Shown: positions 1,413 to 15,829, counted from the first letter of the stretch. The stretch: DNA of 27,009 nucleotides from a virus (UHGV-1355560), one strand, 5' to 3'. Made by a program: numbers and translations. Notes: generated by a model not told the origin, from the sequence alone.

Positions 1413-2954
1413 ATGTCATTAGATAAACAAATTTATGAAGCTCTAACTGGTAACAACCTTAGTGTAGAGGAAAAGAAAGCACTATTGAATATGTTGAAAG
1501 AGCGTGACCAATGGAGGAAGTATAATAAGATTTTGTCTTTCAAGGCGTATGACTTCCAAAAGAAATTTTATGCAGCAGGATTGAAGCATCGCTTTAGATT
1601 CTTGTGTGCAGCGAACCGTGTTGGTAAATCTTACAGCGAGGCATACGAGTTTGCTTGTCATGTCACAGGTCGCTACCCAACTTGGTGGACAGGATATAAA
1701 TTTAAAAGACCTATCTTAGCATGGGCAGTTGGTATTACAGGGGATTCCACAAGGAAAGTGTTGCAAAAGGAATTGTTTGGTACACCTATCGGAAAGGATA
1801 CAAACTTATTGGGGACAGGTGTCATTCCTCGTGATGCTATCGTCATTGACACGATAGAACGAGATGGTAACAAACTTCAAATCGTACAAATCAAACATCA
1901 AAATGAAAGAGGAGAGTTTGACGGTTTAAGTACATTAGAATTCCGTTCAACCCAACAGGGTGAACACACATTGATGGGTGCAACAGTTGACTACATTTGG
2001 TTAGACGAAGAAGATCCATACGAGTCTATGGCTATATTCGCACAGTGCGTCACACGTACACTCACAACTAAAGGTCTAGTTACAATTACAGCTACACCAG
2101 AGAACGGTTTAACTGAACTGGTAGATAAATTTATGAAAGGTGAAGGGGATGAGAACACAGGTTCTCTATATTTCCAGAATGCTTCTTGGTGGGATGCTCA
2201 TGCAGACCTAGGTGGACATATCACTGACCAAGATATAAAAGATATGACTGAAGGTATTCCAGCGTGGCAATTAGAGATGCGTTCAAAAGGTATGCCATTG
2301 TTAGGAAGTGGTTTGATATATGATGTATCGGATGACACAATTAAATGTGAACCATTCGAAATTCCTGATACGTGGAAACGTGTCTGTGCAATTGATATTG
2401 GTATTGATCACCCAACTGCTGCTGTTTGGACAGCTTACGATGCAAACACGGATACTATCTATGTTTACGACTCATATAAAGAAGGTGGCTTTACTCCAGT
2501 GTATCATGCTCCAGCTATTAATGGTCGTGGTCAGTGGATTCCTGTCATCCTACCGCACGATGCGGATAATATTGAGAAAGGTAGTGGTTCATCTGTTGCT
2601 CAATTCTATAAGAATGCAGGAGTTAACGTACAGAGTGAGACCTTCTACAACAAAATTGGAATGGATGGTAAAAAGAACTTCTTTGTAGAACCAGGAATCA
2701 CAGATATCCGAGAAAGAATGATGAGTGGACGCTTTAAAATCTTTAACACAGCCGCTAACGCTAAGCTATTCGAAGAGAAAGCTAGATATCACCGTAAGGT
2801 TGGTAAGATTATTAAAGAACATGATGACTTAATGGATGCAATGCGCTATTCAGCGTGCTCTGTTACACATCGTGGTCGCTCTAAGCATGACGTTAGCTAT
2901 GGAAGTGCTTCTTTGTATGAGGCAAACGTAAGCAGATGGAATCAGAGTTACTAA
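1413..2954 (+). CDS. terL: Terminase large subunit (513 aa)
   Basis: Walker A-like motif AANRVGKSYS, Walker B-like VDYIWLDEED and a C-terminal nuclease-like region with conserved acidic residues (CAIDIGIDH...). GGAGG SD 5 nt upstream. Typical size and position ahead of portal. Confidence 0.85.
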   Translation: MSLDKQIYEALTGNNLSVEEKKALLNMLKERDQWRKYNKILSFKAYDFQKKFYAAGLKHRFRFLCAANRVGKSYSEAYEFACHVTGRYPTWWTGYKFKRPILAWAVGITGDSTRKVLQKELFGTPIGKDTNLLGTGVIPRDAIVIDTIERDGNKLQIVQIKHQNERGEFDGLSTLEFRSTQQGEHTLMGATVDYIWLDEEDPYESMAIFAQCVTRTLTTKGLVTITATPENGLTELVDKFMKGEGDENTGSLYFQNASWWDAHADLGGHITDQDIKDMTEGIPAWQLEMRSKGMPLLGSGLIYDVSDDTIKCEPFEIPDTWKRVCAIDIGIDHPTAAVWTAYDANTDTIYVYDSYKEGGFTPVYHAPAINGRGQWIPVILPHDADNIEKGSGSSVAQFYKNAGVNVQSETFYNKIGMDGKKNFFVEPGITDIRERMMSGRFKIFNTAANAKLFEEKARYHRKVGKIIKEHDDLMDAMRYSACSVTHRGRSKHDVSYGSASLYEANVSRWNQSY

Positions 2955-3137
2955 AATCCTAAGAGTTTCTAGAGAGGTTTAGGCCAGAGATTAGCCTTTC
3001 TAGCGCAGGGGGCAAGCATTCTGGCGGCTTGTTGGGGAGAGTAGGCTACGACCTCCCTTTTAGTCTTGTGGTTACTAAATTCTAGTGGTGGTAGGACAGC
3101 CCCACGTTAAAAACAGAAACGTCCAAACAGAAAAATT

Positions 3138-3165
3138 GGGAGGTTTGTCCTCCCTTCTTTTATTT
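3138..3165 (+). terminator. Hairpin GGGAGG-TTTGT-CCTCCC followed by a T-rich tract, between terL and portal
   Basis: 6-bp GC stem and T-rich tail read directly. Sits just upstream of the portal SD, so it may attenuate rather than fully terminate. Confidence 0.4.
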
Positions 3166-3191
3166 AAGCTATCAACCGAGGGAGAGAATCG

Positions 3192-5435
3192 ATGGCTAAG
3201 CAAAAATATAGTGAAGAGGTGTTGGACGAGTTACGTGTTGACCTTCAACGTCGTTTTAATTATGCTCAAGGCTACGTGGACATGGCTGTTAAGGGCTATG
3301 CTCGTGAAGCTTGGGAATATTTCTATGGTAACTTACCTGCACCAGTAACTGCTGGCAGCTCTAGTTGGGTAGATCGTACTGTTTGGGAATCTGTTAACGG
3401 TACATTGCAAGATATTATTAACGTATTCTGTTCTGGTGATGAAGCAGTTACTTTCGTAGCTGACAACCAACAGGATTCTGATGCTGCTGATGTAGCAACT
3501 AAATTGGTTAACCAAATTCTTCTGCGTGACAATCCGGGATACAATATTATCTCTTCTGCTGCACAAGAATGTCTGGTTACTCGTAACTCTTTTATCAAAT
3601 ATTATTGGGATGAGCAAACTTCTACTCAAACTGAAGAAGCTGAAGGTGTACCACCGGAAGCATTGGCTGCATATGTTCAGGGATTAGAAGCTGGTGGACT
3701 CAAGAATCTGGAAATCTTCACTGAAGAAAATGAAGATGGTACAGTAGATGTTAAAGTTACTTACGAACAAACTGTTAAACGTGTGAAAGTTGAATATGTT
3801 CCTTCAGAGCAAATCTTTGTTGACGAACATGCTACCTCTTTTGCAGATGCACAATACTTCTGTCATCGTGTACGTCGTTCTAAAGAAGATCTGGTTGCTA
3901 TGGGCTTCCCTAAAGATGAGATTGAAGCATTTAACGACTGGACAGACACGATGGATACTACTCAATCTACAGTTGCTTGGTCTCGTACTGACTGGCGTCA
4001 GGATATTGATGCTGATATTGGTACAGATACTGAAGATATCGCTTCTATGGTTTGGGTTTATGAGCACTACATTCGTACTGGTGTTCTAGATAAGAATAAA
4101 GAGTCTAAACTCTATCAGGTTATTCAAGCTGGTGAGCATATCCTTCACACTGAAGAAGTAACTCACATTCCGTTTGTAACCTTCTGCCCGTATCCGATTC
4201 CGGGTTCCTTCTATGGTCAATCGGTCTATGACATTACGAAAGATATTCAAGATTTACGTACCGCGTTAGTTCGTGGTTATATTGATAACGTCAACAATGC
4301 TAACTATGGTCGATACAAAGCTCTTGTTGGTGCATACGATCGTCGCTCTCTGCTTGATAACCGTCCCGGTGGAGTGGTTGAAATGGAACGTCAGGACGCT
4401 ATTGACCTGTTCCCATACCATAACCTACCTCAAGGTATTGACGGCCTCCTAGGTATGTCTGAGGAGCTTAAAGAGACACGTACAGGTGTAACCAAACTAG
4501 GCATGGGTATCAACCCTGATGTGTTTAAGAATGATAACGCTTATGCAACCGTAGGCTTGATGATGAATGCTGCACAGAACCGTCTCCGTATGGTATGTCG
4601 TAACATTGCTCACAATGGTATGGTTGAATTGATGCGTGGTATTTACAACCTTATCAGAGAAAATGGTGAAGTTCCTATTGAGGTACAAACCCCTCGTGGT
4701 ATGATTCAGGTTAACCCGAAACAATTACCAGCTCGTCATAATCTTCAAGTTGTTGTAGCTATCTCCCCTAACGAGAAAGCAGAACGTGCACAGAAACTGA
4801 TTAGCTTGAAACAGCTGATTGCAGCAGATGCACAGTTAGCGCCTCTCTTTGGTTTGGAGCAAGACCGTTACATGACTGCACAGATCTTTGAGTTGATGGG
4901 TATTAAGGACACACATAAATACCTTCTGCCTCTGGAACAGTATCAGCCTCCAGAACCTTCTCCGATGGAAATCCTCCAGCTCGAGATGACTAAAGCTCAG
5001 GTTGAGAACGTACAGGCTTCTTCTCAGAAGATGATTGCTGATGCATTCGACCAACGTGAACGTACTACATTCGAACAGCAGAAAGCTGCGGATGAATTAA
5101 GTCTGCGTCAGGAAGAGTTGCAGTTCAAGCAAGAAAATGCAGCAGATGCAATGACTCTGGAAAACCGTAAAGAAGATAACAATGCTACTCTGGAACAAGC
5201 CAAGCACAAGTTAGCTCTTATGCAACAGCAGGTCCGTCAGTATGAATCTGTACTGAAAGAATTGCAGATGGTTATGTCTCATCAGGTAGACCAAGAGAAG
5301 ATTGTTCAGCAAGCTCGTGTTCAGGACAAAACTTTGGAACTCCAAAAGAAAGAAGCTAATGTAACTAAGAAAGAGCAACAAGCTTCTCTCAAAGATTCAC
5401 GGATTCCAGGCAAACGTCTTGGAAGTAAAAAGTAA
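3192..5435 (+). CDS. Portal protein (747 aa) with a long C-terminal Q/E/K-rich coiled-coil-like tail
   Basis: Large protein directly after terL and before scaffold and capsid. The last ~150 residues are a low-complexity heptad-like Q/E/K-rich segment ending in a basic tail (GKRLGSKK). Confidence 0.8.
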   Translation: MAKQKYSEEVLDELRVDLQRRFNYAQGYVDMAVKGYAREAWEYFYGNLPAPVTAGSSSWVDRTVWESVNGTLQDIINVFCSGDEAVTFVADNQQDSDAADVATKLVNQILLRDNPGYNIISSAAQECLVTRNSFIKYYWDEQTSTQTEEAEGVPPEALAAYVQGLEAGGLKNLEIFTEENEDGTVDVKVTYEQTVKRVKVEYVPSEQIFVDEHATSFADAQYFCHRVRRSKEDLVAMGFPKDEIEAFNDWTDTMDTTQSTVAWSRTDWRQDIDADIGTDTEDIASMVWVYEHYIRTGVLDKNKESKLYQVIQAGEHILHTEEVTHIPFVTFCPYPIPGSFYGQSVYDITKDIQDLRTALVRGYIDNVNNANYGRYKALVGAYDRRSLLDNRPGGVVEMERQDAIDLFPYHNLPQGIDGLLGMSEELKETRTGVTKLGMGINPDVFKNDNAYATVGLMMNAAQNRLRMVCRNIAHNGMVELMRGIYNLIRENGEVPIEVQTPRGMIQVNPKQLPARHNLQVVVAISPNEKAERAQKLISLKQLIAADAQLAPLFGLEQDRYMTAQIFELMGIKDTHKYLLPLEQYQPPEPSPMEILQLEMTKAQVENVQASSQKMIADAFDQRERTTFEQQKAADELSLRQEELQFKQENAADAMTLENRKEDNNATLEQAKHKLALMQQQVRQYESVLKELQMVMSHQVDQEKIVQQARVQDKTLELQKKEANVTKKEQQASLKDSRIPGKRLGSKK

Positions 5436-6807: not shown

Positions 6808-7869
6808 ATGGCTAATCCAACTTTATTTGTATCATATGACCAGAATGGTAAAAAACTTTCTTTTGCTAACTGGATTTCTGTTCTGTCCCCTCAGGATACC
6901 CCGTTCGTATCCATGACCGGTAAAGAGTCTATCAACCAGACTATCTTTAGCTGGCAGACCGATGCACTGGCAAGCGTTGATGGTAATAACGCACACGTCG
7001 AAGGCTCTCGTGCTGAAGACGGCGAAATGAAACCGACTGTTATCAAGTCTAACGTTACTCAGATTCTGCGTAAGGTTGTTCGTGTTTCTGACACCGCTAA
7101 CACCACCGCTAACTACGGTCGTGGTCGTGAACTGATGTACCAGCTGGAGAAGAAAGGTAAAGAGATCAAGCGTGACCTCGAGAAAATCCTTCTGTCCGGT
7201 CAGGCTCGTACTGATGTTCTGGCTGACCAATATCTGACTAACTCTGCAACGGATCCTGCTGTTGTTGGTCTGAATGACACCCATGCAGCTCGTAAGACTG
7301 GTGCATTCCAGTTCCTGTGTGCTCACGGTGGTTTGTCTGGTGGTGTTGTTGACAAGACTAAGAATGGTCCTGCTGACCCGGATACTGGTGCAGTAACTGT
7401 TAAAGTTGCACAGAATGCTTCTAACCCGACCACTAACATTGGTTTCGACGAAGCTGATATCTTTGATATGACTCTGCAACTGTATACCGCTGGTTCTGAA
7501 GCAGATATCATCATGATTAACCCGGCTCATGCTAAGATCTTCGCTGGTCTGCAAGAAAATACTCAGGGTTCACGTAAGCGTATCTTTGAGAACACCAAGC
7601 AGTTCATCTACGAAGTTAATAGCATCACTGACCCGCTGGGCCAGAGCTACAAAATCATCGTTAACCGTTGGATGCCTACCGATGCAGTTTACTTCTTCCG
7701 TAGCGCTGACTGGACTCAGATGGTTCTGCGTGCTCCGAAACGTACTGAACTGGCTAAAGACGGTTCTTACGAGAAATGGATGATTGAAATGGAAGTTGGT
7801 CTGCGTCACCGCAACCCGTATGCTTCCGGCGTTCTGTTCACTGCTGCGGGAAAGGTAGCGGCGGCGTAA
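6808..7869 (+). CDS. Major capsid protein (353 aa), zero-frame product
   Basis: Position after scaffold, appropriate size, and a C-terminal region (GLRHRNPYASGVLFTAAGK) that resembles the C-terminus of T7-type capsid proteins as recalled from memory. Not confirmed by search. Confidence 0.8.
   Translation: MANPTLFVSYDQNGKKLSFANWISVLSPQDTPFVSMTGKESINQTIFSWQTDALASVDGNNAHVEGSRAEDGEMKPTVIKSNVTQILRKVVRVSDTANTTANYGRGRELMYQLEKKGKEIKRDLEKILLSGQARTDVLADQYLTNSATDPAVVGLNDTHAARKTGAFQFLCAHGGLSGGVVDKTKNGPADPDTGAVTVKVAQNASNPTTNIGFDEADIFDMTLQLYTAGSEADIIMINPAHAKIFAGLQENTQGSRKRIFENTKQFIYEVNSITDPLGQSYKIIVNRWMPTDAVYFFRSADWTQMVLRAPKRTELAKDGSYEKWMIEMEVGLRHRNPYASGVLFTAAGKVAAA
7848..7854 (+). other. Candidate -1 programmed ribosomal frameshift slippery heptamer G_GGA_AAG, 13 nt before the capsid stop codon
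   Basis: Canonical X_XXY_YYZ heptamer in the capsid zero frame. The -1 frame is open from here through 8924 and encodes Ig-like domains that begin before any ATG. Confidence 0.65.
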
Positions 7870-8924
7870 CAGTAGATTCCGTAACTGTTAGTCCTTCGTC
7901 GGTTGCAAGCCTTCCGACGGGGGCTACTCAGCAGTTTACAGCTACAGCAGAAATGAGTGACGGCTCCACAAGCACAACCGGATTTAGTTGGTCCGTTGAG
8001 GGCGGTGGGGCTGTTTCTGTTTCTGGGCTATATACTGCACCGAGTGCGTCGCAAGAAACCCCAGCAACTATTACGGCAACGAAGTCATCCAAGAAAGGAA
8101 CGGCTACTGTTAATTCTATCTACGAACCGGCGACCATTGTGTCAAAAGGTCCTATTACCGGCAAGATTGGTGGCAGCACTACAGCTTTTACCACAATGTT
8201 TACGGCAACCAACTCAGCATTCTCTGATTATGAATTTGAAATCACTCCTCCGTCAGCAGGTTCCTTTAATCTGTCGGGTGTGTTTGGTTTAGATGATAAT
8301 GCATCTGGAACAGTGACTGTAAAAGCAACACATAAAACTCAGACCTCCGTTACGGCTACTACCTCCTTTACTGGAGTTGCTGCTAAAGCTGGAATTGTGA
8401 CTAAAGGTCCGATAACTACTGCTCTTGTTGGTGGTGATTCAGTAGCTTTCAACACAATGTTTACTACCGTCAACTCTTCAGCGTCTGATTATACAGTTAC
8501 AGTAAATCCTGAAGCTAATGGGTCTTTCGTTAGTGGTTCTGTAGTCCTTTCTGCTAATGCATCAGGAAGCACTGTTGTTAAAGCTGTTCACAAAACACAA
8601 CCTAATGCAACAGAAACTTGTACATTATCCAATGTTACTCCTAAAGCAGTTTTGACAGCTAAGACAGTAACTGGTAAAATTGGTGGGGACACTGTTACGT
8701 TTGCTGATTTATTCACAGCAACTAACTCCTCTGCTTCCAATTACACTTTCGTAGCCAACCCTTCTAATATGGCAACCTCTATTGATGCAAATACAGGTCT
8801 TGTCACTTTAGCAGCTAATGCTACTGGTAATGTTACTATCAAAGCTACCCATAAAACTCAAACCTCAGTTACTGCAACAGGGACAATCAGTGGTGTAGTT
8901 CCTAAAAGCTACTATCACAGGTAA
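7854..8924 (+). CDS. Capsid C-terminal extension in the -1 frame: one Big_2-like domain followed by tandem ~85-aa Ig-like repeats (likely capsid decoration fused by frameshift)
   Basis: The -1 frame has no stop from the slippery site to 8924. The translation VDSVTVSPSSVASLPTGATQQFTA... starts upstream of the first ATG at 7953, so it cannot be an independent gene. Repeats each end in KATHKTQTSVTAT. Confidence 0.65.
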   Translation, partial: GSGGVTVDSVTVSPSSVASLPTGATQQFTATAEMSDGSTSTTGFSWSVEGGGAVSVSGLYTAPSASQETPATITATKSSKKGTATVNSIYEPATIVSKGPITGKIGGSTTAFTTMFTATNSAFSDYEFEITPPSAGSFNLSGVFGLDDNASGTVTVKATHKTQTSVTATTSFTGVAAKAGIVTKGPITTALVGGDSVAFNTMFTTVNSSASDYTVTVNPEANGSFVSGSVVLSANASGSTVVKAVHKTQPNATETCTLSNVTPKAVLTAKTVTGKIGGDTVTFADLFTATNSSASNYTFVANPSNMATSIDANTGLVTLAANATGNVTIKATHKTQTSVTATGTISGVVPKSYYHR

Positions 8925-9492
8925 ATCTCTTACCGGTAAGGTTGGTGGTGATGTGATTCCTTTTACTGACATGTTCACTAGTAACAAGCCAGCATCAGAA
9001 TTCACTTACGTACTAACTCCTACTGGTGAAGTTGGTTCAATCAACACTACTACTGGTGCACTGACTTTAGCACTGGCTCCTACAGATGAAGCTATGAGTG
9101 TGAAAGCTACTCATAAAACTCAAACTTCTGTAACCGCTACTGCTACAATTACAGCAACACCGAAGCTGACAGGTCTTGTTCTTTCTTCTGTGACTAACAC
9201 CACAGTTACTGGAAGCCCTGCGGTTCCGGCTGAATCTGATACAATCACTATCACTGATTCGGGTGTTGCAGGTGTGGCTCGTGTAGATGGAGTTCCTCAA
9301 GGAGCTGTAACTGGAGCTTTGGCCTATGATGTAGAAGGTACAGACTCTTCATTGATGACAGTGGATTTAACCAGTAATGTGTTAACTATCACTCTGTCAG
9401 CACCGATTACCAGTGAAGATACAAAAATCACCATCCGAACTAATCCGGGTTCTGATGTTTTCCGTACCTATATTGTTAAATCTGGTGCATAA
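8899..9492 (+). CDS. Continuation of the Ig-like repeat region in a different frame (fourth repeat plus C-terminal domain), separated from the preceding part by a 1-nt frame break at an AAAA run (8904-8907)
   Basis: The frame-1 translation KATITGKSLTGKVGGDVIPFTDMF... completes the repeat unit that the upstream frame cuts off at VVPKSYYHR*. The ORF-track start (GTG at 8953) lies in the middle of a repeat unit with no SD. Confidence 0.55.
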   Translation, partial: FLKATITGKSLTGKVGGDVIPFTDMFTSNKPASEFTYVLTPTGEVGSINTTTGALTLALAPTDEAMSVKATHKTQTSVTATATITATPKLTGLVLSSVTNTTVTGSPAVPAESDTITITDSGVAGVARVDGVPQGAVTGALAYDVEGTDSSLMTVDLTSNVLTITLSAPITSEDTKITIRTNPGSDVFRTYIVKSGA

Positions 9493-9591: not shown

Positions 9592-10345
9592 ATGGCGATG
9601 CCAGATGTGGCCTATCCGATTAACACGTATGGCTGGCTTAAGAAAGCTGTTGCCTTGTGGGCCGATCGGGACGATGATGAATTTGTTAATCAAATTCCAA
9701 ACTTTATTAATTTTGCAGAGAAAGAGATTTATCGTAACTTACGTATTCCTCCTCTGGAAAAAGAAGTGTATTTAGATATCAAAGATGGAGTGGCTTATAT
9801 TCCTCCTGATTACTTAGAAGCTCAGTGGATGATGAGAGCCAAAGATGGTACAATCTTCCAAGTAACATCTCCTGAGGAGATTAGCTATCGTAGACAGCAT
9901 GGAACAATTAACCCATCCCACTGGAACAACCAGCCTGTTAACTTTGTCTCGTTTCGGGAGTCGTTTCATTTTCTATCCTAGTATTGAAGCAGATACTCCT
10001 GTTTATCCTGATGATGGAAGCCCTTTGATTCCAGCAGAAAACTCAGTGATTCTTAGCTATTATGCGGACCCACCGGAATTCCATGAAGATACAGATACCA
10101 GTGCTATCCTTACTATTGCACCAGAGCTTCTTCTGTATTTCACTCTACGTCACGCTTGCTTATTTGTTCAAGATGATAATGGAGTTCAGAAATGGTCTGC
10201 ATTAGGAAAAGCTATCCTTGATGAAATAGTAGAGCAGCATAAGAAACAAGAGTACTCAGGTTCACCTATCGCAATTCCGAATAACATGACTCGACTTCAG
10301 AGCAGCTTGCCTGATATTTATGGTATTCGTACTTCTCGTGTATAA
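9592..10345 (+). CDS. Hypothetical virion structural protein (~250 aa) split into two overlapping frames (9592-9981 and 9899-10345), a possible head-tail adaptor
   Basis: Strong SD (AGGAGG) before 9592. The second ORF has no SD, and its frame is open from 9866, overlapping the end of the first. Protein-like sequence switches from frame 1 to frame 2 near 9946. Confidence 0.5.
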
Positions 10346-10354
10346 GGAGATAAT

Positions 10355-13300
10355 ATGATCGTTTATAATAGCCAAGCACCTGATGCAGTGAATGATGTTG
10401 GGCAGTTTGGTGCTAAGGAAGGCTCTATCGGAGCTTACAAGCAAGCAGCAGAATATGCAGCTGACTCCAAATATTGGGCACTGCTAGCGGAGTCTAAGTT
10501 TGGTACAATTGATGACTTGATCACTGAAGTAGAACGTCTGTATCAACAAGGTGTTTTAATGAAGCAAGATATCGAAGATCTTAAACAGGACTTTAAAGAT
10601 CAAGATGCTCGTTTGATGACACTTATTGCTCAGACTAACGCAGCAGTGTCGGATGCTAATAATGCCGTTGCTTTAATCAATCAGAAACTTATTGAGGTTC
10701 AGAAACAGCTTGATGTTCTGTTGGGAATGTCTGTTGACGTAACTACACTTCCTCCGGGAACTCCGGCTACTGGCTCTTTTAATCCGAACACTGGTGTAAT
10801 CTCTTTAGGTATTCCAGAAGGTGATCCCGGAAAGGATGGTTCTGTTAAAGATTTGGATACAGCACCTACTGGTGTTCCAGAGCTAGGTGATTTAGGTTTC
10901 TATGTTGACAAAGATGACAATACTGTCCACAAGACTACTCTAGAGAATATTGCTAACTTAATTCCATCTGTTCGTTCTGTGTCTGTTAACGGTGGAACAC
11001 CTGCTGATGGAGAAGTTAATCTGGTCCTAGACAAAACTACTGTAGGTCTTAATAACGTAGTTAACGTAGCCTCTTATAGTATCTCTCAAGTTGACGGTAA
11101 AGTGGATGGGTATGTTAAAACCTACAGAACCAAAGCTGCTGCGGATGCTGATGTAGTTAACCGAAAGGTTGGCGAAAACATCCTAGTTTGGGAGGATTAT
11201 AAATACGTCTTCTACACTGTAGCTGCCGATAAAACACTAACTCTTTCTAAAACAGAAAATAGGATTGTTACGGTAAACTCTCGAGTTCCGGATTCTACTG
11301 GTAATATTGATATTACGATACCTACCGGTAACCCGTCTTTGTATTTGGGTGAGATGTTAATGTTCCCTTATGACCCAGCCAAACAGGTGTCATATCCGGG
11401 TGTTCTTCCAGCTGATGGTCGTCTGGTGTCTAAAGATAACGCTGCTGATTTAGGCCCATCTCTTGTCAGTGGTCAACTTCCTGTTGTTTCTGAAACTGCG
11501 TGGCAAGCTGGAGCTAAACAGTATTTCTCTTGGGGCAAGTTAGCTGATGGGGTTACTGATGCGGATTCAACAAACTTTATCAATATTCGACTTCCCGATT
11601 GGACAGGTGGTGAGGCAATTAGATCTCCAAGTAAAACAAGTGACACTCAGTATGATGGAAGACCTCTTTCTCAGGTTCCTTATGTTGTTGCTGTTAACGG
11701 TAAGATCCCTAATGAAGCAACAGGTAATGTTACAGTCACAGCATCAGATGTAGGTGCCCTTCCTACTACTGGTGGTAAGATGACAGGCCATCTAAATCTC
11801 AGCTCTGGGATTGTGTTAACAGGTACCGCGAGTTCTGGAACATCCATTAATATCGCAACTGTTGCAACTGATGGTTCCGTTCTTCTCGGTAGTGATACAG
11901 TTAAAGCTAAAGTCCTATCTTCTGATGTCCCTGTTTATGCAAGCGCTTCGGGAGAGAAGAAGTTTTACACTGAGGCTAACAAACCAACTCCTGCTGAAAT
12001 AGGGGCTGCTGCTATCACCTCTGCTGGGGTTAACGGGGATATCACTAAGCTTGAAGGTTTGGTTGGCCCTACTCGACTGGGTGGAGATGCTGTAGGTGAT
12101 CTAGATGCTGTTACCTTACGTCAGTTAAGAAACCAAGGGGGTGGCGGTGGTGGGGCTAGCTTGAACGGTGTCTCTAATTTCAATATTGGTGATTTCCGTT
12201 TAGTAGACAGTCGTGCTCTTATTCACTCTAATGACGTAACTTCTGACGGTCAATTATTATCTCGTACGGCATACCCAGATCTGTGGGCTTATGCTCAAGC
12301 GTTGTCTCCTATCACAGATGCTGCTTGGCTGGCTGACCCCCAACAAAGAGGTAAATACTCTTTAGGTGATGGTTCTACTACATTCCGTGTCCCTGACCGA
12401 AATGGTGTCCAAAGCGGCTCTATCACAGGGTTGTTTGGTAGGGGTGACTCTGGTAATTCTTCTAACAGTGGTTCAGTTTCTGATGCTTCTCTGCCAAACA
12501 TCACAGCTAGCTTCTCTTCAGACTTAAACGGAAAAGCTTGGTTTCCTTTCACTACAGCTGACGGGTCTATGCTTGTCTCAACATCCGGTAGTGGAACTTT
12601 TATGCCAACTGCTGGATATGAAACTGGGACCCAAGGAAATATACTTAGGTTCGATGCATCTAGACAATCCTCAGTTTATGGTCGATATAGTAACACCCAG
12701 AACGTAATACCTAAAAGTTTTACTGGCGTTTGGGTAATCAGGGCTACTGGTGGATTCACTGCTGCTAATACAGAGTGGTCTGTTATTAACTCCGATGCAA
12801 CCAAACCTTCTACTGGGTTTACAGTGTCTGGTGGTTTAGTCCGCTCTGAGTATAAAATAGGGACCGACCTAACTTACTCAGCAACCTTGTCTGCTTATGG
12901 GCAAATTGATGGAGCCTCCGGAACATCTGGAGCTAAAATCTTAAACGGGTCTCAGGAGTGGAAATTCAACAATGCTGGAACATTAGTTCTTCCTAATGCG
13001 GTATCTCAGCTTGGTACAGAAAGACCTGATGGAGCTATCAATGTTGATGCATACCTAAGACCTAAAGATTTGGTAGCCAACTCACTGAACTCTGTCGGTG
13101 TTGCGGCTTACGAGCGAAACGGTATGAGGATGATTAACTTCAATCAAACCACTCCTGGATATGTTTCTTACTTCTCTGGGGATTGGTATGATGGCAGTTA
13201 CACTCTTGGTGGCGTTCGTGGTACTGGTACAGACCTGATTCATGCTCAGATTGCGGTAAACAACGGTCAAGGTGTAGCAGCTGATTTTAAGTTCATGCCG

Positions 13301-13669
13301 GACGGAACTGCTCAAGCAGGGAACTGGTCAAGCACTTCAGACGAAAGACTTAAAACTAACATCAAGCGTATTGAGAATCCTATTGAAAAACTTAAGGCTA
13401 TCAAAGGTGTTACTTGGGAACGTCTTGATAAACTTCCTAAACCTAATGGTATTGGCTTCCTTGCGCAAGATGTGGAGAAGGTTTTCCCTGACGCTGTTAA
13501 GGCTCTCCAGTATTCAGACACTGAATTGAAAGATGGAACTATTGTGAAAGATGTTAAGTCTGTAGACACCTATGGGGTAGCTGCTGCACTGCATCACGAA
13601 GTCCTATTAGTTTTGTTAGATAGAATAGAAGCTCTTGAGAAAGAAGTAAATGAATTAAGGGCACGGTAA
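10355..13669 (+). CDS. Tail fibre or tailspike protein (1104 aa) with a central tail-collar-like module and a C-terminal intramolecular chaperone (peptidase S74-like) domain
   Basis: Gly-rich linkers and a C-terminal ...NWSSTSDERLKTNIKRIENPIEKLKAIKGVTWERLDK...GFLAQDVEKVFPDAV segment, matching the self-cleaving chaperone found on endosialidase-type fibres. Strong SD. Confidence 0.85.
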   Translation: MIVYNSQAPDAVNDVGQFGAKEGSIGAYKQAAEYAADSKYWALLAESKFGTIDDLITEVERLYQQGVLMKQDIEDLKQDFKDQDARLMTLIAQTNAAVSDANNAVALINQKLIEVQKQLDVLLGMSVDVTTLPPGTPATGSFNPNTGVISLGIPEGDPGKDGSVKDLDTAPTGVPELGDLGFYVDKDDNTVHKTTLENIANLIPSVRSVSVNGGTPADGEVNLVLDKTTVGLNNVVNVASYSISQVDGKVDGYVKTYRTKAAADADVVNRKVGENILVWEDYKYVFYTVAADKTLTLSKTENRIVTVNSRVPDSTGNIDITIPTGNPSLYLGEMLMFPYDPAKQVSYPGVLPADGRLVSKDNAADLGPSLVSGQLPVVSETAWQAGAKQYFSWGKLADGVTDADSTNFINIRLPDWTGGEAIRSPSKTSDTQYDGRPLSQVPYVVAVNGKIPNEATGNVTVTASDVGALPTTGGKMTGHLNLSSGIVLTGTASSGTSINIATVATDGSVLLGSDTVKAKVLSSDVPVYASASGEKKFYTEANKPTPAEIGAAAITSAGVNGDITKLEGLVGPTRLGGDAVGDLDAVTLRQLRNQGGGGGGASLNGVSNFNIGDFRLVDSRALIHSNDVTSDGQLLSRTAYPDLWAYAQALSPITDAAWLADPQQRGKYSLGDGSTTFRVPDRNGVQSGSITGLFGRGDSGNSSNSGSVSDASLPNITASFSSDLNGKAWFPFTTADGSMLVSTSGSGTFMPTAGYETGTQGNILRFDASRQSSVYGRYSNTQNVIPKSFTGVWVIRATGGFTAANTEWSVINSDATKPSTGFTVSGGLVRSEYKIGTDLTYSATLSAYGQIDGASGTSGAKILNGSQEWKFNNAGTLVLPNAVSQLGTERPDGAINVDAYLRPKDLVANSLNSVGVAAYERNGMRMINFNQTTPGYVSYFSGDWYDGSYTLGGVRGTGTDLIHAQIAVNNGQGVAADFKFMPDGTAQAGNWSSTSDERLKTNIKRIENPIEKLKAIKGVTWERLDKLPKPNGIGFLAQDVEKVFPDAVKALQYSDTELKDGTIVKDVKSVDTYGVAAALHHEVLLVLLDRIEALEKEVNELRAR

Positions 13670-13679
13670 TATAAATAAT

Positions 13680-13698
13680 GCTCCCTTCGGGGAGCTTT
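13680..13698 (+). terminator. Hairpin GCTCCC-TTCG-GGGAGC with a short T tract (weak terminator or RNA-stabilising hairpin)
   Basis: Perfect 6-bp stem with UUCG loop but only 3 T after it, immediately followed by the SD of the next fibre gene. Confidence 0.4.
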
Positions 13699-13710
13699 AA
13701 GGAGATTTAA

Positions 13711-15807
13711 ATGTCTAGAGATTTAATGCCCAAATCTGGCATACTTCAACCATATGTTGTTGTTTCCAGAGATGCAGCTGTTGTTGGCGTTTCCACTGTA
13801 GATGGTGTTGCTGGAGCTGTAAATTTAACTGATAAATACTTGCAGAAAACAGAAGCGGCTGATGTATATCAAACTAAAACAGAAGGTGCATCTAAAGATT
13901 ATGTATTAGATTCAATTAAACCTATCATGGAAGGTGCTTTGTTCAAAGCAGACCCTTTTGTAGATAATAACATCCCTTTCCGTTCTGCTGGGGCTAATGG
14001 TGTAGAGTCTGTGGATATGATGAAAGTCACCACTGATAACTCAATTAAGATTGGTAGTTATGCTTCCTCAGTTCAAGGTGTAGAAATTCACTCTGCTGGT
14101 CGTCTTCAGGTTGTTGACCAGAATGACTCTGGGGTAGAAACTAAGTACCCTGTTTATTCTAAACGATACCGCCCTGAGATTGAAGATTTACCTTTCGCTG
14201 CAATCGGAACTTATGTTAAAGATTCAAAAGGTCGTACTGTTGGTGTTACCCGTACAGGTATTAACTCTGATATCAAACAGCTTACACAGAAGGTTACTTT
14301 CACTCAGCCAGTAACTGTTGCCGATGCAGTTGGTGACTATGATGCTGTCACACTAAGACAACTCCGTAATAGTAGTGGTGGTTCTGGTGGTCCTACAATG
14401 AGCGGTATTTCTAACTTTGGTATTGGTGATTTCAGACTAGTAGACAGCCGTGCTTTTATCCAATCAAATGATGTTACCTCAGATGGTCAGCTGTTAAATC
14501 GTGCTGATTACCCAGAGCTTTGGGCTTACGCACAACTATTGACCCCAATTAGTGATGCAGATTGGCTGGCTGACCCCCAACAAAGAGGTAAATACTCTTT
14601 AGGTGATGGTTCTACTACTTTCCGCGTTCCTGATAGAAATGGCGTTCAAACCGGTTCTATCTCTGGTCTGTATGCTCGCGGTGACGGTGGTAACAGCTCC
14701 AACGACGGTACTGTTCAGCAGAACGCCGCGCCTGATATTACAGGCTCCGTTGGTGCGAACATATGGAGCGTATATGGAGATCCTACGGGGGCGATGTTTG
14801 CGGCTGATCCAGCACTTAATATTCCGTTAGGCGCAGGAACCACACCAGCGCTTTCCGTCGGCTTTCGAGCGGGCCTATCAAACGCCGCTTATGGTCGCGA
14901 CAACACGACCGAAGTCCGCACCAACAGCTTCATAGGTGTCTGGGTTATTCGTGCTAATGGTGGCTTTACTGCTGCTAATACTTCTTGGTCTGTTATTAAT
15001 GGCGACAGCGTTGCTCCGGGTACTGGAACAAAGATAGTAGGTGGTGAGATTCGTTCTGACTATAATATTGGAGACTCTATGCACATAAGATCCTCTATGC
15101 GTGCTGATGGTAACTACGGTCAACGTGGAGGTGGTGTATGGAGAATTGAGGACTATCAAGGTAAAAGTGCAGAGATATCTTTCAACCTTGGTGGTGAGTT
15201 AGTGGTCCCAACATACACCAGAGGCGTGGGGTCGGGTTTCATTGCATCTTCTAAATTAGGGTCTGATGGTCAGTGGCCTACAACATCCCCGGCGTTTATT
15301 TGTGAGCTAACAGGCAGAGTGGGTAATCCCGGAACACCGGGTGCTGTTTTCTCCATGTCTATGGCGGAGAACGTGGGTGTTGATAGCTTTGGCATACTTA
15401 GATTCTCAGGAGCAGGGGTGAATGTGGACTGGCTGTTTAACCAGTTTGGTAGTGCCATAGCTCCTGCTAACTGGGTGAGTAATTCGGATATCCGAATTAA
15501 AAAGGATATTGCTAAGATAGAAGAACCTCTTGAGAAGATGAAGAAACTACATGGGTACACTTGGCGACGCTTAGACGGGGGCCAGTTTGGTATTGGGTTC
15601 ATTGCTCAAGAAGTTCAGGATATCTATCCAGAGTTGGTCTATACAGGCCCAGACAGAACCCTCCCTGATGGAACAGTTGTCAAAGGTGTCCTATCTCCAG
15701 ATTCTACTGGTATTGCGATTGGTCTTCACCACGAAGCTATTCTGGCTTTGATGGAACAAATCGACACCCTTAAAGCAGAGATTGCTGAACTCAAATCTAA
15801 CAAATGA
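13711..15807 (+). CDS. Second tail fibre protein (698 aa) with the same tail-collar-like module and C-terminal S74-like chaperone domain
   Basis: Shares DAVTLRQLRN...GDFRLVDSRA...WLADPQQRGKYSLGDGSTTFRVPDRNGVQ with fibre 1, and has a C-terminal ...NSDIRIKKDIAKIEEPLEKMKKLHGYTWRRLDG...GFIAQEVQDIYPELV chaperone domain. Confidence 0.85.
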   Translation: MSRDLMPKSGILQPYVVVSRDAAVVGVSTVDGVAGAVNLTDKYLQKTEAADVYQTKTEGASKDYVLDSIKPIMEGALFKADPFVDNNIPFRSAGANGVESVDMMKVTTDNSIKIGSYASSVQGVEIHSAGRLQVVDQNDSGVETKYPVYSKRYRPEIEDLPFAAIGTYVKDSKGRTVGVTRTGINSDIKQLTQKVTFTQPVTVADAVGDYDAVTLRQLRNSSGGSGGPTMSGISNFGIGDFRLVDSRAFIQSNDVTSDGQLLNRADYPELWAYAQLLTPISDADWLADPQQRGKYSLGDGSTTFRVPDRNGVQTGSISGLYARGDGGNSSNDGTVQQNAAPDITGSVGANIWSVYGDPTGAMFAADPALNIPLGAGTTPALSVGFRAGLSNAAYGRDNTTEVRTNSFIGVWVIRANGGFTAANTSWSVINGDSVAPGTGTKIVGGEIRSDYNIGDSMHIRSSMRADGNYGQRGGGVWRIEDYQGKSAEISFNLGGELVVPTYTRGVGSGFIASSKLGSDGQWPTTSPAFICELTGRVGNPGTPGAVFSMSMAENVGVDSFGILRFSGAGVNVDWLFNQFGSAIAPANWVSNSDIRIKKDIAKIEEPLEKMKKLHGYTWRRLDGGQFGIGFIAQEVQDIYPELVYTGPDRTLPDGTVVKGVLSPDSTGIAIGLHHEAILALMEQIDTLKAEIAELKSNK

Positions 15808-15810
15808 GAT

Positions 15811-15829
15811 AAGCCCCTTCGGGGGCTTT
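15811..15829 (+). terminator. Hairpin AAGCCCC-TTCG-GGGGCTT after fibre 2 (weak T-tract)
   Basis: 7-bp stem with UUCG tetraloop read directly. The T-tract is short, so it may be a partial terminator. Confidence 0.4.

Follow-up and report, generated by a model that had tools for sequence, protein, structure and literature searches.

What do two adjacent tail fibre genes, each ending in a chaperone domain of its own, contribute to the phage that carries them, and how did they come to share sequence? The question is raised by a stretch of DNA of 27,009 nucleotides (nt) from the virus UHGV-1355560, here called the window. A preliminary description of it placed two open reading frames (ORFs) side by side, and we found both with the same coordinates and the same lengths in amino acids (aa):

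10355..13669, + strand: fibre 1, 1104 aa, long-tail-fibre proximal protein, homologue of SU10 gp12 and phiEco32 gp14, in an LtfA-like form (class B, defined below) with its own receptor-binding head and chaperone
13711..15807, + strand: fibre 2, 698 aa, long-tail-fibre distal or branch protein, homologue of SU10 gp13, phiEco32 gp15, EP335 gp13 and DT57C LtfB

Judged by its genes, the source is a Kuravirus-like Escherichia coli podophage (phiEco32/SU10 group, Gordonclarkvirinae) and the window is its structural and lysis module. We consider it likely that the two genes encode two trimeric subunits of a branched Kuravirus-like long tail fibre, that both subunits carry a receptor-binding head and an S74 chaperone, and that the cores of the heads have been exchanged. 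In what follows f1 and f2 are the window's fibres 1 and 2 (WIN_f1 and WIN_f2 in comparisons), pECN is pEC-N1203-2Af.1, the nearest published phage (OQ540978), and L012, L013 and L014 are metagenomic contigs.

The two fibres had been described as sharing a central module of ~120 aa flanked by different distal regions. The shared module was confirmed, but its extent was not: BLASTP aligned f1 497-1103 to f2 100-696 with 41% identity (E 3e-129), and the homology runs from f1 ~575 and f2 ~202 to both C-termini. Along this alignment, a left arm (f1 575-705) is 73-95% identical in aa, a hypervariable stretch (706-774) drops to 27%, a right arm (775-835) returns to 63%, and the tip (836-994) and the chaperone (995-1104) stand at 28% and 46%. 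Since the alignment reaches the C-termini with these values for tip and chaperone, the distal regions are diverged homologues and not unrelated sequences. Synonymous divergence (dS) between f1 and f2 was saturated, at about 2 (1.9-2.2), in every segment except the 20 codons of a 57-nt block that is identical in both genes (dS 0.07). On this evidence, the paralogy of the two fibres as a whole is old.

Both proteins end in the S74-type chaperone that had been predicted for them:

13337..13669, + strand: f1 S74 intramolecular chaperone, predicted cleavage S995|D996 releasing 109 aa (Pfam, motif, 6f45 match)
15484..15807, + strand: f2 S74 intramolecular chaperone, predicted cleavage S592|D593 releasing 106 aa (Pfam, model confidence, fold matches)

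Pfam Peptidase_S74 (PF13884, cutoff 22) matched f1 995-1049 (E 1.6e-14, 54.4 bits) and f2 592-644 (E 2.3e-14, 53.8 bits), so that the domain starts 110 and 107 residues before the respective C-terminal end. The expected S-D-x-R-x-K motif was found as SDERLK at f1 995-1000 and as SDIRIK at f2 592-597, with the conserved Ser-Asp and the Lys at +5, and both align with SDERIK at Ser621|Asp622 of EP335 gp13. In that protein, the loss of the chaperone by cleavage between Ser621 and Asp622 was shown by electrospray ionisation mass spectrometry (Witte et al., 2021, PMC8217332); HHpred likens its central part to the tip of T4 gp12, and the protein binds O157 and O26 cells (PMC8217332). The f1 chaperone also matched the S16 gp37 chaperone 6f45 (E 3e-5). 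An AlphaFold2 monomer model of f2 195-698 reached a mean predicted local distance difference test score (pLDDT) of 66.7, with 82-93 in the chaperone part, whose modelled fold matched 7dc3, 3gw6 and 3gud; according to the model, a chaperone fold is present. By analogy with EP335 gp13, T5 pb1 and endoNF, we infer that f1 and f2 cleave themselves. The MEROPS S74 class of C-terminal intramolecular chaperones includes those of the endosialidase of K1F (endoNF), GA-1 and T5 pb1 (Schulz et al., 2010, as cited in PMC8217332), but unlike in the endoNF-type proteins, what lies upstream of the window chaperones are fibre heads and not a sialidase beta-propeller or triple beta-helix. The Pfam search that accompanied the S74 prediction gave a different result for the Collar domain (PF07484), which scored 20.9 and 17.7 bits in the two window proteins, below the gathering score of 24 bits.

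Next to its chaperone, f1 comprises the following parts:

10355..10624, + strand: f1 N-terminus, aa 1-90, putative adaptor-complex docking by homology, nearly identical to the 90 residues of SU10 gp12 built from cryo-electron microscopy (cryo-EM) (PMC9509320)
11060..11760, + strand: f1 aa 236-468, conserved segment and proposed branch point for f2, common to all Gordonclarkvirinae proximal fibres and T5-like LtfA
12077..12424, + strand: f1 left conserved arm of the gp12-like receptor-binding domain (DAVTLRQLRN ... WLADPQQRGKYSLGDGSTTFRVPDRNGVQ), from alignments; clusters by gene slot
12425..12680, + strand: f1 hypervariable core, 'gamma' type, with 41% nt identity to the f1 of pEC-N1203-2Af.1 and of L012 despite 96-99% backbones
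12681..12790, + strand: f1 right conserved arm (F.GVWVIRA.GGF.AANT.WSVIN), from alignments and repeat D2
12857..13336, + strand: f1 distal tip, aa 835-994, 'T5-like' second receptor-binding domain (naming after BASEL-2)

Residues 1-499 of f1 matched SU10 gp12, a 'putative tail fiber' (PDB 7z47 chain D), with E 6e-251 and near identity over residues 1-204, and residues 236-884 matched LtfA (1076 aa) of DT57C, a T5-like phage (8hqz chain d), with E 1e-123; the pEC-N1203-2Af.1 fibre is 91% identical to f1 over its full length. In SU10, gp12 is the proximal and gp13 the distal part of the long tail fibre, and residues 1-90 of gp12 were built into the cryo-EM map in their adaptor-bound form (PMC9509320). 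The f1 segment 236-468 occurs once per genome in 242 phage records, 85 of them at 60% identity or above and 157 below 60%; the former number agrees with the 85-86 Gordonclarkvirinae records, and the latter matches are T5-like among those listed. A second, upstream collar-like repeat, as in DT57C LtfA 346-400, was not detected when f1 321-430 was compared with f1 615-702 by BLASTP (E 2.5).

We distinguished two classes of fibre 1. Class A, with phiEco32 gp14, SU10 gp12, EP335 gp12 and those of L013 and L014, comprises proteins of 786-926 aa that end in PF25670 (Phage_tail_C_2), as fibre 1 does in most relatives, and have no S74 domain. Class B, with the window, pEC-N1203-2Af.1, LAMP, EK010, PAS59 and L012, comprises proteins of 1068-1104 aa that are LtfA-like from ~residue 470 and end in S74. 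PF25670 matched SU10, phiEco32 and EP335 at E 1e-55 to 1e-60 but gave no match in the window f1, where S74 stands instead. A tblastn search with the f1 module returned 308 phage records, with two copies per genome in only about 20; in the 60 best rows, drawn almost entirely from this phage group, two copies were carried by pEC-N1203-2Af.1, PAS59, E20-1, EK010, LAMP and SDYTW1-F1-2-2_3. The window thus represents a minority form, in which the 'proximal' fibre has a complete head of its own.

Upstream of its chaperone, f2 is built from a different N-terminus followed by the same series of parts:

13711..14310, + strand: f2 N-terminal anchor, aa 1-200, with 80-97% identity in 85 of the 85 matching records, all from the same E. 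coli/Shigella phage group
14314..14661, + strand: f2 left conserved arm, which holds the second copy of the 57-nt block (14562-14618)
14662..14890 (approximate boundaries), + strand: f2 hypervariable core, 'alpha' type, with 93% nt identity to the fibre-1 core of the metagenomic Kuravirus L012
14891..15000, + strand: f2 right conserved arm, with 89-93% identity to the right arms of the f1 of pEC-N1203-2Af.1 and of L012
15073..15483, + strand: f2 distal tip, second receptor-binding domain

The match of f2 to phrog_6921 spans its full length. Residues 1-500 align with DT57C LtfB 1-531 (42% identity, E 3e-103), the first ~45 aa resemble LtfB, and residues 203-644 also match DT57C LtfA 559-1015. 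The exact f2 protein was found in a single record, the NCBI contig CYGL01000233.1 (28,121 nt) of the draft assembly GCA_001292545.1, from which the window comes; this is a contig of a whole-genome shotgun assembly and not a phage record, though this phage group is described as lytic podoviruses. The fibre 2 of pEC-N1203-2Af.1 (L001 7354-9509) has 625 aa, no S74 domain and two small annotated ORFs downstream, and its gp12-like module belongs to a strongly diverged type, with 50-60% nt identity in the left arm. This fibre may have been truncated, or its head may be of another type.

Among known systems, the closest model is the LtfA/LtfB pair of the tequintaviruses DT57C and DT571/2 (PMC4728585; Ayala et al., 2023, PMC10713586, PDB 8HQZ). 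LtfA and LtfB form a branched fibre and both carry pfam13884 chaperones; LtfA 223-471 resembles phiEco32 gp14 and the LtfB N-terminus resembles phiEco32 gp15 (Golomidova et al., 2016, PMC4728585). As in the window, the genes are adjacent, the first protein has its own receptor-binding region and an anchor for the virion, the second has a conserved N-terminus by which it would attach, each has its own distal head and S74 domain, and repeats between the genes recombine. The C-terminal halves are paralogous there too (LtfA 445-1074 and LtfB 126-786, 49% identity). Homology to the window covers f1 246-1104 for LtfA and f2 1-500 for LtfB, at an identity of only 36-42%. The systems differ in that DT57C is a siphovirus whose LtfA N-terminus docks on LtfC and the T5 collar, whereas the N-terminus of the window f1 is SU10 gp12-like (podovirus adaptor), and in that the DT57C chaperone cleavage motif is not S-D-x-R-x-K. 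Because the homology to LtfA starts only at f1 ~236-246, the window pair would work like LtfA/LtfB but be anchored differently; by comparison of the two loci, it is the podovirus counterpart of the LtfA/LtfB arrangement.

SU10 gp12/gp13 and phiEco32 gp14/gp15 (Siborova et al., 2022, PMC9509320) have the same gene order, the same type of virion and a fibre 2 with the same gp12-like, tip and S74 layout; f1 1-468 is 82% identical, and fibre 2 is 86.5-87% identical over residues 1-200. The difference lies in their fibre 1 (786 and 880 aa), which ends in PF25670 and has neither a gp12-like head nor S74, while the window swaps in an LtfA-like head from ~residue 470. EP335 gp13 (Nieuwekanaalvirus, PMC8217332) is an f2 orthologue with 56% identity over the full length, but the EP335 fibre 1 (gp12, 926 aa) is of class A, with no head or chaperone, and because the hypervariable core and tip of gp13 differ from those of f2, the EP335 receptor cannot be transferred to the window. 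In BASEL-2 (Humolli et al., 2025, PMC11990801), 'T-shaped' fibres are described from Gordonclarkvirinae, Wifcevirus and Tequintavirus; they consist of a Gp12-like first receptor-binding domain (RBD1), a T5-like second one (RBD2) and a C-terminal intramolecular chaperone, with RBDs mobile among podo-, myo- and siphoviruses. These fibres have the parts seen in the window, but there each fibre has a single T-shaped head, borne by a proximal fibre that lacks a head (Gp9 of Bas87), whereas the window proximal fibre provides a second full head.

Taken with the homologies and the domain order that we observed, these systems suggest how the fibre would be built. By analogy with SU10, f1 would attach to the adaptor ring by its first ~90 residues, and f2 would attach by its conserved 200-residue N-terminus to f1, most likely at residues ~236-468, giving a branched fibre like that of LtfA/LtfB. 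Each branch would end in a three-part cassette of a T4-gp12-like RBD (two arms and a core of ~85 aa), a T5-pb1-like tip and an S74 chaperone, which would fold the trimer and then cut itself off at S995|D996 in f1 and at S592|D593 in f2. If EP335, DT57C and the BASEL-2 phages are a guide, the likely receptors are surface glycans (O-antigens), with a separate specificity for each branch or each domain. The conserved arms would serve as recombination homology for cores that are swapped between the two slots and imported from T5-like phages, while the tip has relatives in ~68-kb E. coli phages, and the 57-nt block would be the footprint of the latest exchange, at the left junction of the f1 core. 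Class-B Kuraviruses are accordingly predicted to show two complete heads per fibre.

The docking of a fibre-2-type protein on a segment like f1 236-468 was proposed by Golomidova et al. (PMC4728585), who also refer, on the strength of a personal communication, to a branched fibre made of phiEco32 gp14 and gp15 (PMC4728585); in DT57C itself, branching was deduced from genetics and weak density (PMC4728585; PMC10713586). The basis for it in our analysis is the co-conservation of f1 236-468 (242 records) and f2 1-200 (85 records), and a docking role of this segment is plausible. Several points weigh against this reading of the locus. In the cryo-EM paper on SU10, gp12 forms the proximal and gp13 the distal section of a single, unbranched fibre with an elbow, and only 90 gp12 residues were resolved (PMC9509320). 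Salmonella phage SP3 keeps a homologue of 236-468 without an annotated second fibre gene downstream of ltf, so the segment need not be the docking site. In addition, a 1-nt insertion in the adaptor gene means that this assembled genome may be defective or contain sequencing errors.

The SU10 structure, a 700-Å fibre with one elbow and with proximal and distal trimers (PMC9509320), would be matched by a linear fibre of two segments, in which f2 sits end-to-end on the distal end of f1 and the f1 head is buried or forms a joint, without being a second receptor binder; the BASEL-2 drawing likewise has the T-shaped distal fibre attached to the proximal fibre (PMC11990801). We regard such a linear fibre as unlikely in the window. 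Here f1 ends in an S74 domain that is expected to be cut off, which would leave a complete gp12-like and T5-like head like that of LtfA, and in DT57C and DT571/2 the head of LtfA has been shown to determine host range (PMC4728585). The class-A C-terminal PF25670 of SU10 gp12 is absent from f1, and what is co-conserved across class A, class B and LtfA is only f1 1-468 and the f2 N-terminus.

To the proposed branched fibre with two heads belongs a pattern of exchange in the heads themselves. At the DNA level, WIN_f1 is 97-100% identical to its pEC-N1203-2Af.1 orthologue throughout the gene, except at 12300-12760 (30-50%) and in a smaller patch at 13010-13100, and its f1 backbone recurs in L012, a contig from a gut metagenome (93% identity over nt 1-2103 and 2371-3315). 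Clustering by slot was seen in the left arm (12077-12324) and in the part downstream of the right arm (12791-12900), with 96-99% identity among f1 genes and 66-69% and 46%, respectively, between f1 and f2. The core (12425-12680), however, clusters by type whatever the slot: WIN_f2 is 93% identical to L012_f1, pECN_f1 is 88% identical to L012_f2, and WIN_f1, L013_f2 and the Ltf of the Salmonella Tequintavirus SP3 share a type at 62-64% identity (62% nt for WIN_f1 and the L013 fibre 2). Runs of informative sites at which pECN_f1 equals WIN_f2 comprise 10 sites at 12425-12450 and about 35 sites at 12685-12823. Four close genomes (window, pEC-N1203-2Af.1, L012 and L013) thus hold three core types in differing slot combinations on the same backbones. 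From these alignments, the same core types sit in fibre 1 of one phage and in fibre 2 of a close relative, and what recombines as a unit is the hypervariable core, about 85 aa long and flanked by the two conserved arms.

The relatives of the individual pieces lie partly outside the group. The f1 core is closest to that of the T5-like Salmonella phage SP3 (67% aa; next best 45%), the f2 core and tip are closest to those of the T5-like Salmonella phages Kenya-K42 and K36 (58%), and the f1 tip is closest to pEC-N1203-2Af.1 (93%), followed by the ~68-kb E. coli phages FEC19 (75%) and EC150 (73%). These origins agree with the published view that RBDs travel among sipho-, myo- and podoviruses (PMC11990801). 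In the comparison with the heads of characterised phages, no core or tip exceeded 67-75% aa identity outside pEC-N1203-2Af.1, so that no receptor or serotype could be assigned. The smaller patch at 13010-13100 (f1 aa ~886-916) lies inside the distal tip, where the identity to pEC-N1203-2Af.1 falls from 97-99% to 72%, and may reflect another exchange or a hotspot of selection in RBD2.

A recent exchange of a module between the two genes had been proposed from the identical block, which was present as described, 12325-12381 being equal to 14562-14618:

12325..12381, + strand: 57-nt block, recent conversion or crossover tract, identical to 14562-14618, bordering the replaced f1 core on its left

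Of all stretches that are identical between the fibre genes this is the longest; it gave 2 matches in the window and 0 in 100 shuffles. Outside it, codons for the same amino acid are identical in 92 of 218 cases (42%), while inside there is a run of 17 (permutation p = 8e-5), which together with its dS and the clustering of the cores by type and not by slot upholds the proposed exchange. In the block, WIN_f1 and WIN_f2 agree at 100% of positions, but the identity of WIN_f1 to pECN_f1 and L012_f1 is only 88-89%; those two orthologues share 98% with one another. At the six sites where WIN_f1 departs from its orthologues (12349-12367), six of six match WIN_f2. The block lies exactly at the left boundary of the replaced f1 core, and we take it, from its sequence context, to be the tract in which the latest exchange took place, by crossover or conversion. 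Both an intragenomic conversion from f2 to f1 and an import, together with the core, from a foreign fibre-2 gene with the same arm fit the data.

The block peptide, WLADPQQRGKYSLGDGSTTF, is nearly invariant over 14 aligned fibres, as would be expected if selection on the nucleotide sequence, through codon choice or RNA structure, had kept the two copies identical without any recombination. We hold this to be very improbable, since fibres that share this peptide, exactly or nearly so, differ at 11-46% of the block positions, including the orthologues pECN_f1 and L012_f1, and other pairs of fibres from the same genome have no such block (72-76% identity). The exact 57-mer was absent from 2.9 M IMG/VR contigs, a megablast search with 12280-12430 returned 3 phage records only (best 91%, none at 95% or above), and all six departures of WIN_f1 from its orthologues match WIN_f2. 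On the IMG/VR and megablast results, the idea that the 57-mer is a widely conserved DNA element was rejected as well.

With recombination again as the preferred origin of the block, the two copies also offer a route to loss. Both start at codon position 3, and a crossover between them would delete 2237 bp in frame and join f1 1-657 to f2 285-698, the same kind of event as the fusion in DT530(1), where ltfA and ltfB recombined between identical sequences (PMC4728585). The pair could accordingly be a decaying duplicate, with one head redundant and heading for loss by a deletion of this kind; Golomidova et al. report this ltfA-ltfB fusion as spontaneous, along with frequent fibre loss on permissive hosts (PMC4728585), and the fibre 2 of pEC-N1203-2Af.1 has no chaperone. 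We give this almost no credence, because neither window ORF is disrupted and each retains a full S74 domain with its cleavage motif, because the cores and tips of the two heads are different (27-28% aa identity), in keeping with two specificities, and because the two-head layout is kept in LAMP, EK010, PAS59 and L012.

A target of a diversity-generating retroelement was considered and rejected, in line with the preliminary description, because the mismatches are not biased to adenine and no reverse transcriptase was found among the genes called in window positions 3711-25807. In the 355-nt ungapped repeat, 52 of the 90 f1/f2 mismatches fall on codon position 3, and the mismatched f1 bases are T 29, C 25, A 20 and G 16. 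The earlier interpretation of the locus was, on the whole, essentially right.

Two heads whose cores follow type and not slot raise the tentative idea, to which we lean somewhat less than to its opposite, that this Kuravirus subgroup runs a two-slot shuffling of cassettes: cores would be moved between the f1 and f2 positions of the same or of co-infecting genomes and imported from T5-like phages, giving combinations of two glycan specificities on one branched fibre. If such shuffling is recurrent, the arms may be kept partly for their function in recombination. A role in recombination has been proposed for conserved motifs in gp37 and gp38 of T-even phages. Swapping of cores between slots is not described in the sections of the BASEL-2 report that were read (PMC11990801). 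The exchange of a small hypervariable piece between the fibres and with other phages is a well-documented route of host-range change, of which this locus is a clean natural example, with host range re-dealt in O-antigen-dependent phages. The two-gene long fibre of Kuraviruses, the branched LtfA/LtfB fibre, S74 chaperones, heads with two RBDs and the horizontal exchange of RBDs are all published, and there is no new mechanism here; what our sequence comparisons add is that the window belongs to the minority class B, that the recombining unit is the core between the arms, and that cores move between fibre slots. The arms WLADPQQRGKYSLGDGSTTFRVPDRNGVQ and F.GVWVIRA.GGF.AANT.WSVIN would serve as precise in-frame junctions for fibre engineering.

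Around the fibres, the window genes, all on the + strand, follow the order portal, scaffold, major capsid protein, Ig-like protein, adaptor, fibre 1, fibre 2, holin, lysozyme, short tail fibre (Gp10_C), nozzle (Big_2), tail needle and ejection proteins. The flanking genes were annotated as SU10_adaptor, phage holin, Phage_lysozyme, Gp10_C and Big_2 nozzle, and the synteny from adaptor through f1, f2, holin, lysozyme and Gp10_C short fibre to nozzle agrees with SU10 (PMC9509320). The adaptor gene (SU10_adaptor; 250 aa in relatives) is broken into the overlapping ORFs 9592-9981 and 9899-10345 by one extra T at ~9947 compared with pEC-N1203-2Af.1, LAMP and phiEco32 (TTTG-CTCG -> TTTGTCTCG), which is either an assembly error or a defect in an essential gene.

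Each fibre gene is followed by a hairpin within ~10 nt of its stop codon:

13680..13695, no strand assigned: GC-rich UUCG-loop hairpin between the fibre genes, GCTCCC-TTCG-GGGAGC, perfect, with an AAGGAG ribosome-binding site downstream
15811-15828: second perfect GC-rich TTCG-loop hairpin, after fibre 2, AGCCCC-TTCG-GGGGCT

The T-tract on the + strand is short, and from their sequence the hairpins may be weak terminators or may stabilise the mRNA. Promoter and terminator scans of the fibre region gave counts not above those of shuffled controls.

The genes upstream of the adaptor include:

6808-7869, + strand: major capsid protein
7953-8924, + strand: Ig-like ORF

The major capsid protein of Kuraviruses is reported to have a normal isoform and an extended one made by ribosomal slippage (YF01 paper, PMC9965538). 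Between the Ig-like decoration gene and the adaptor lies an ORF of 179 aa with a GTG start (8953-9492) that had no Pfam or PHROG match. The stored gene call for the contig lists a single 512-aa product over 7954-9492, which is inconsistent with the reading frames seen. In relatives, the position of the 8953-9492 ORF varies in content, with a 170-aa HNH_3 ORF in L013 and a second 170-aa ORF in PAS59.

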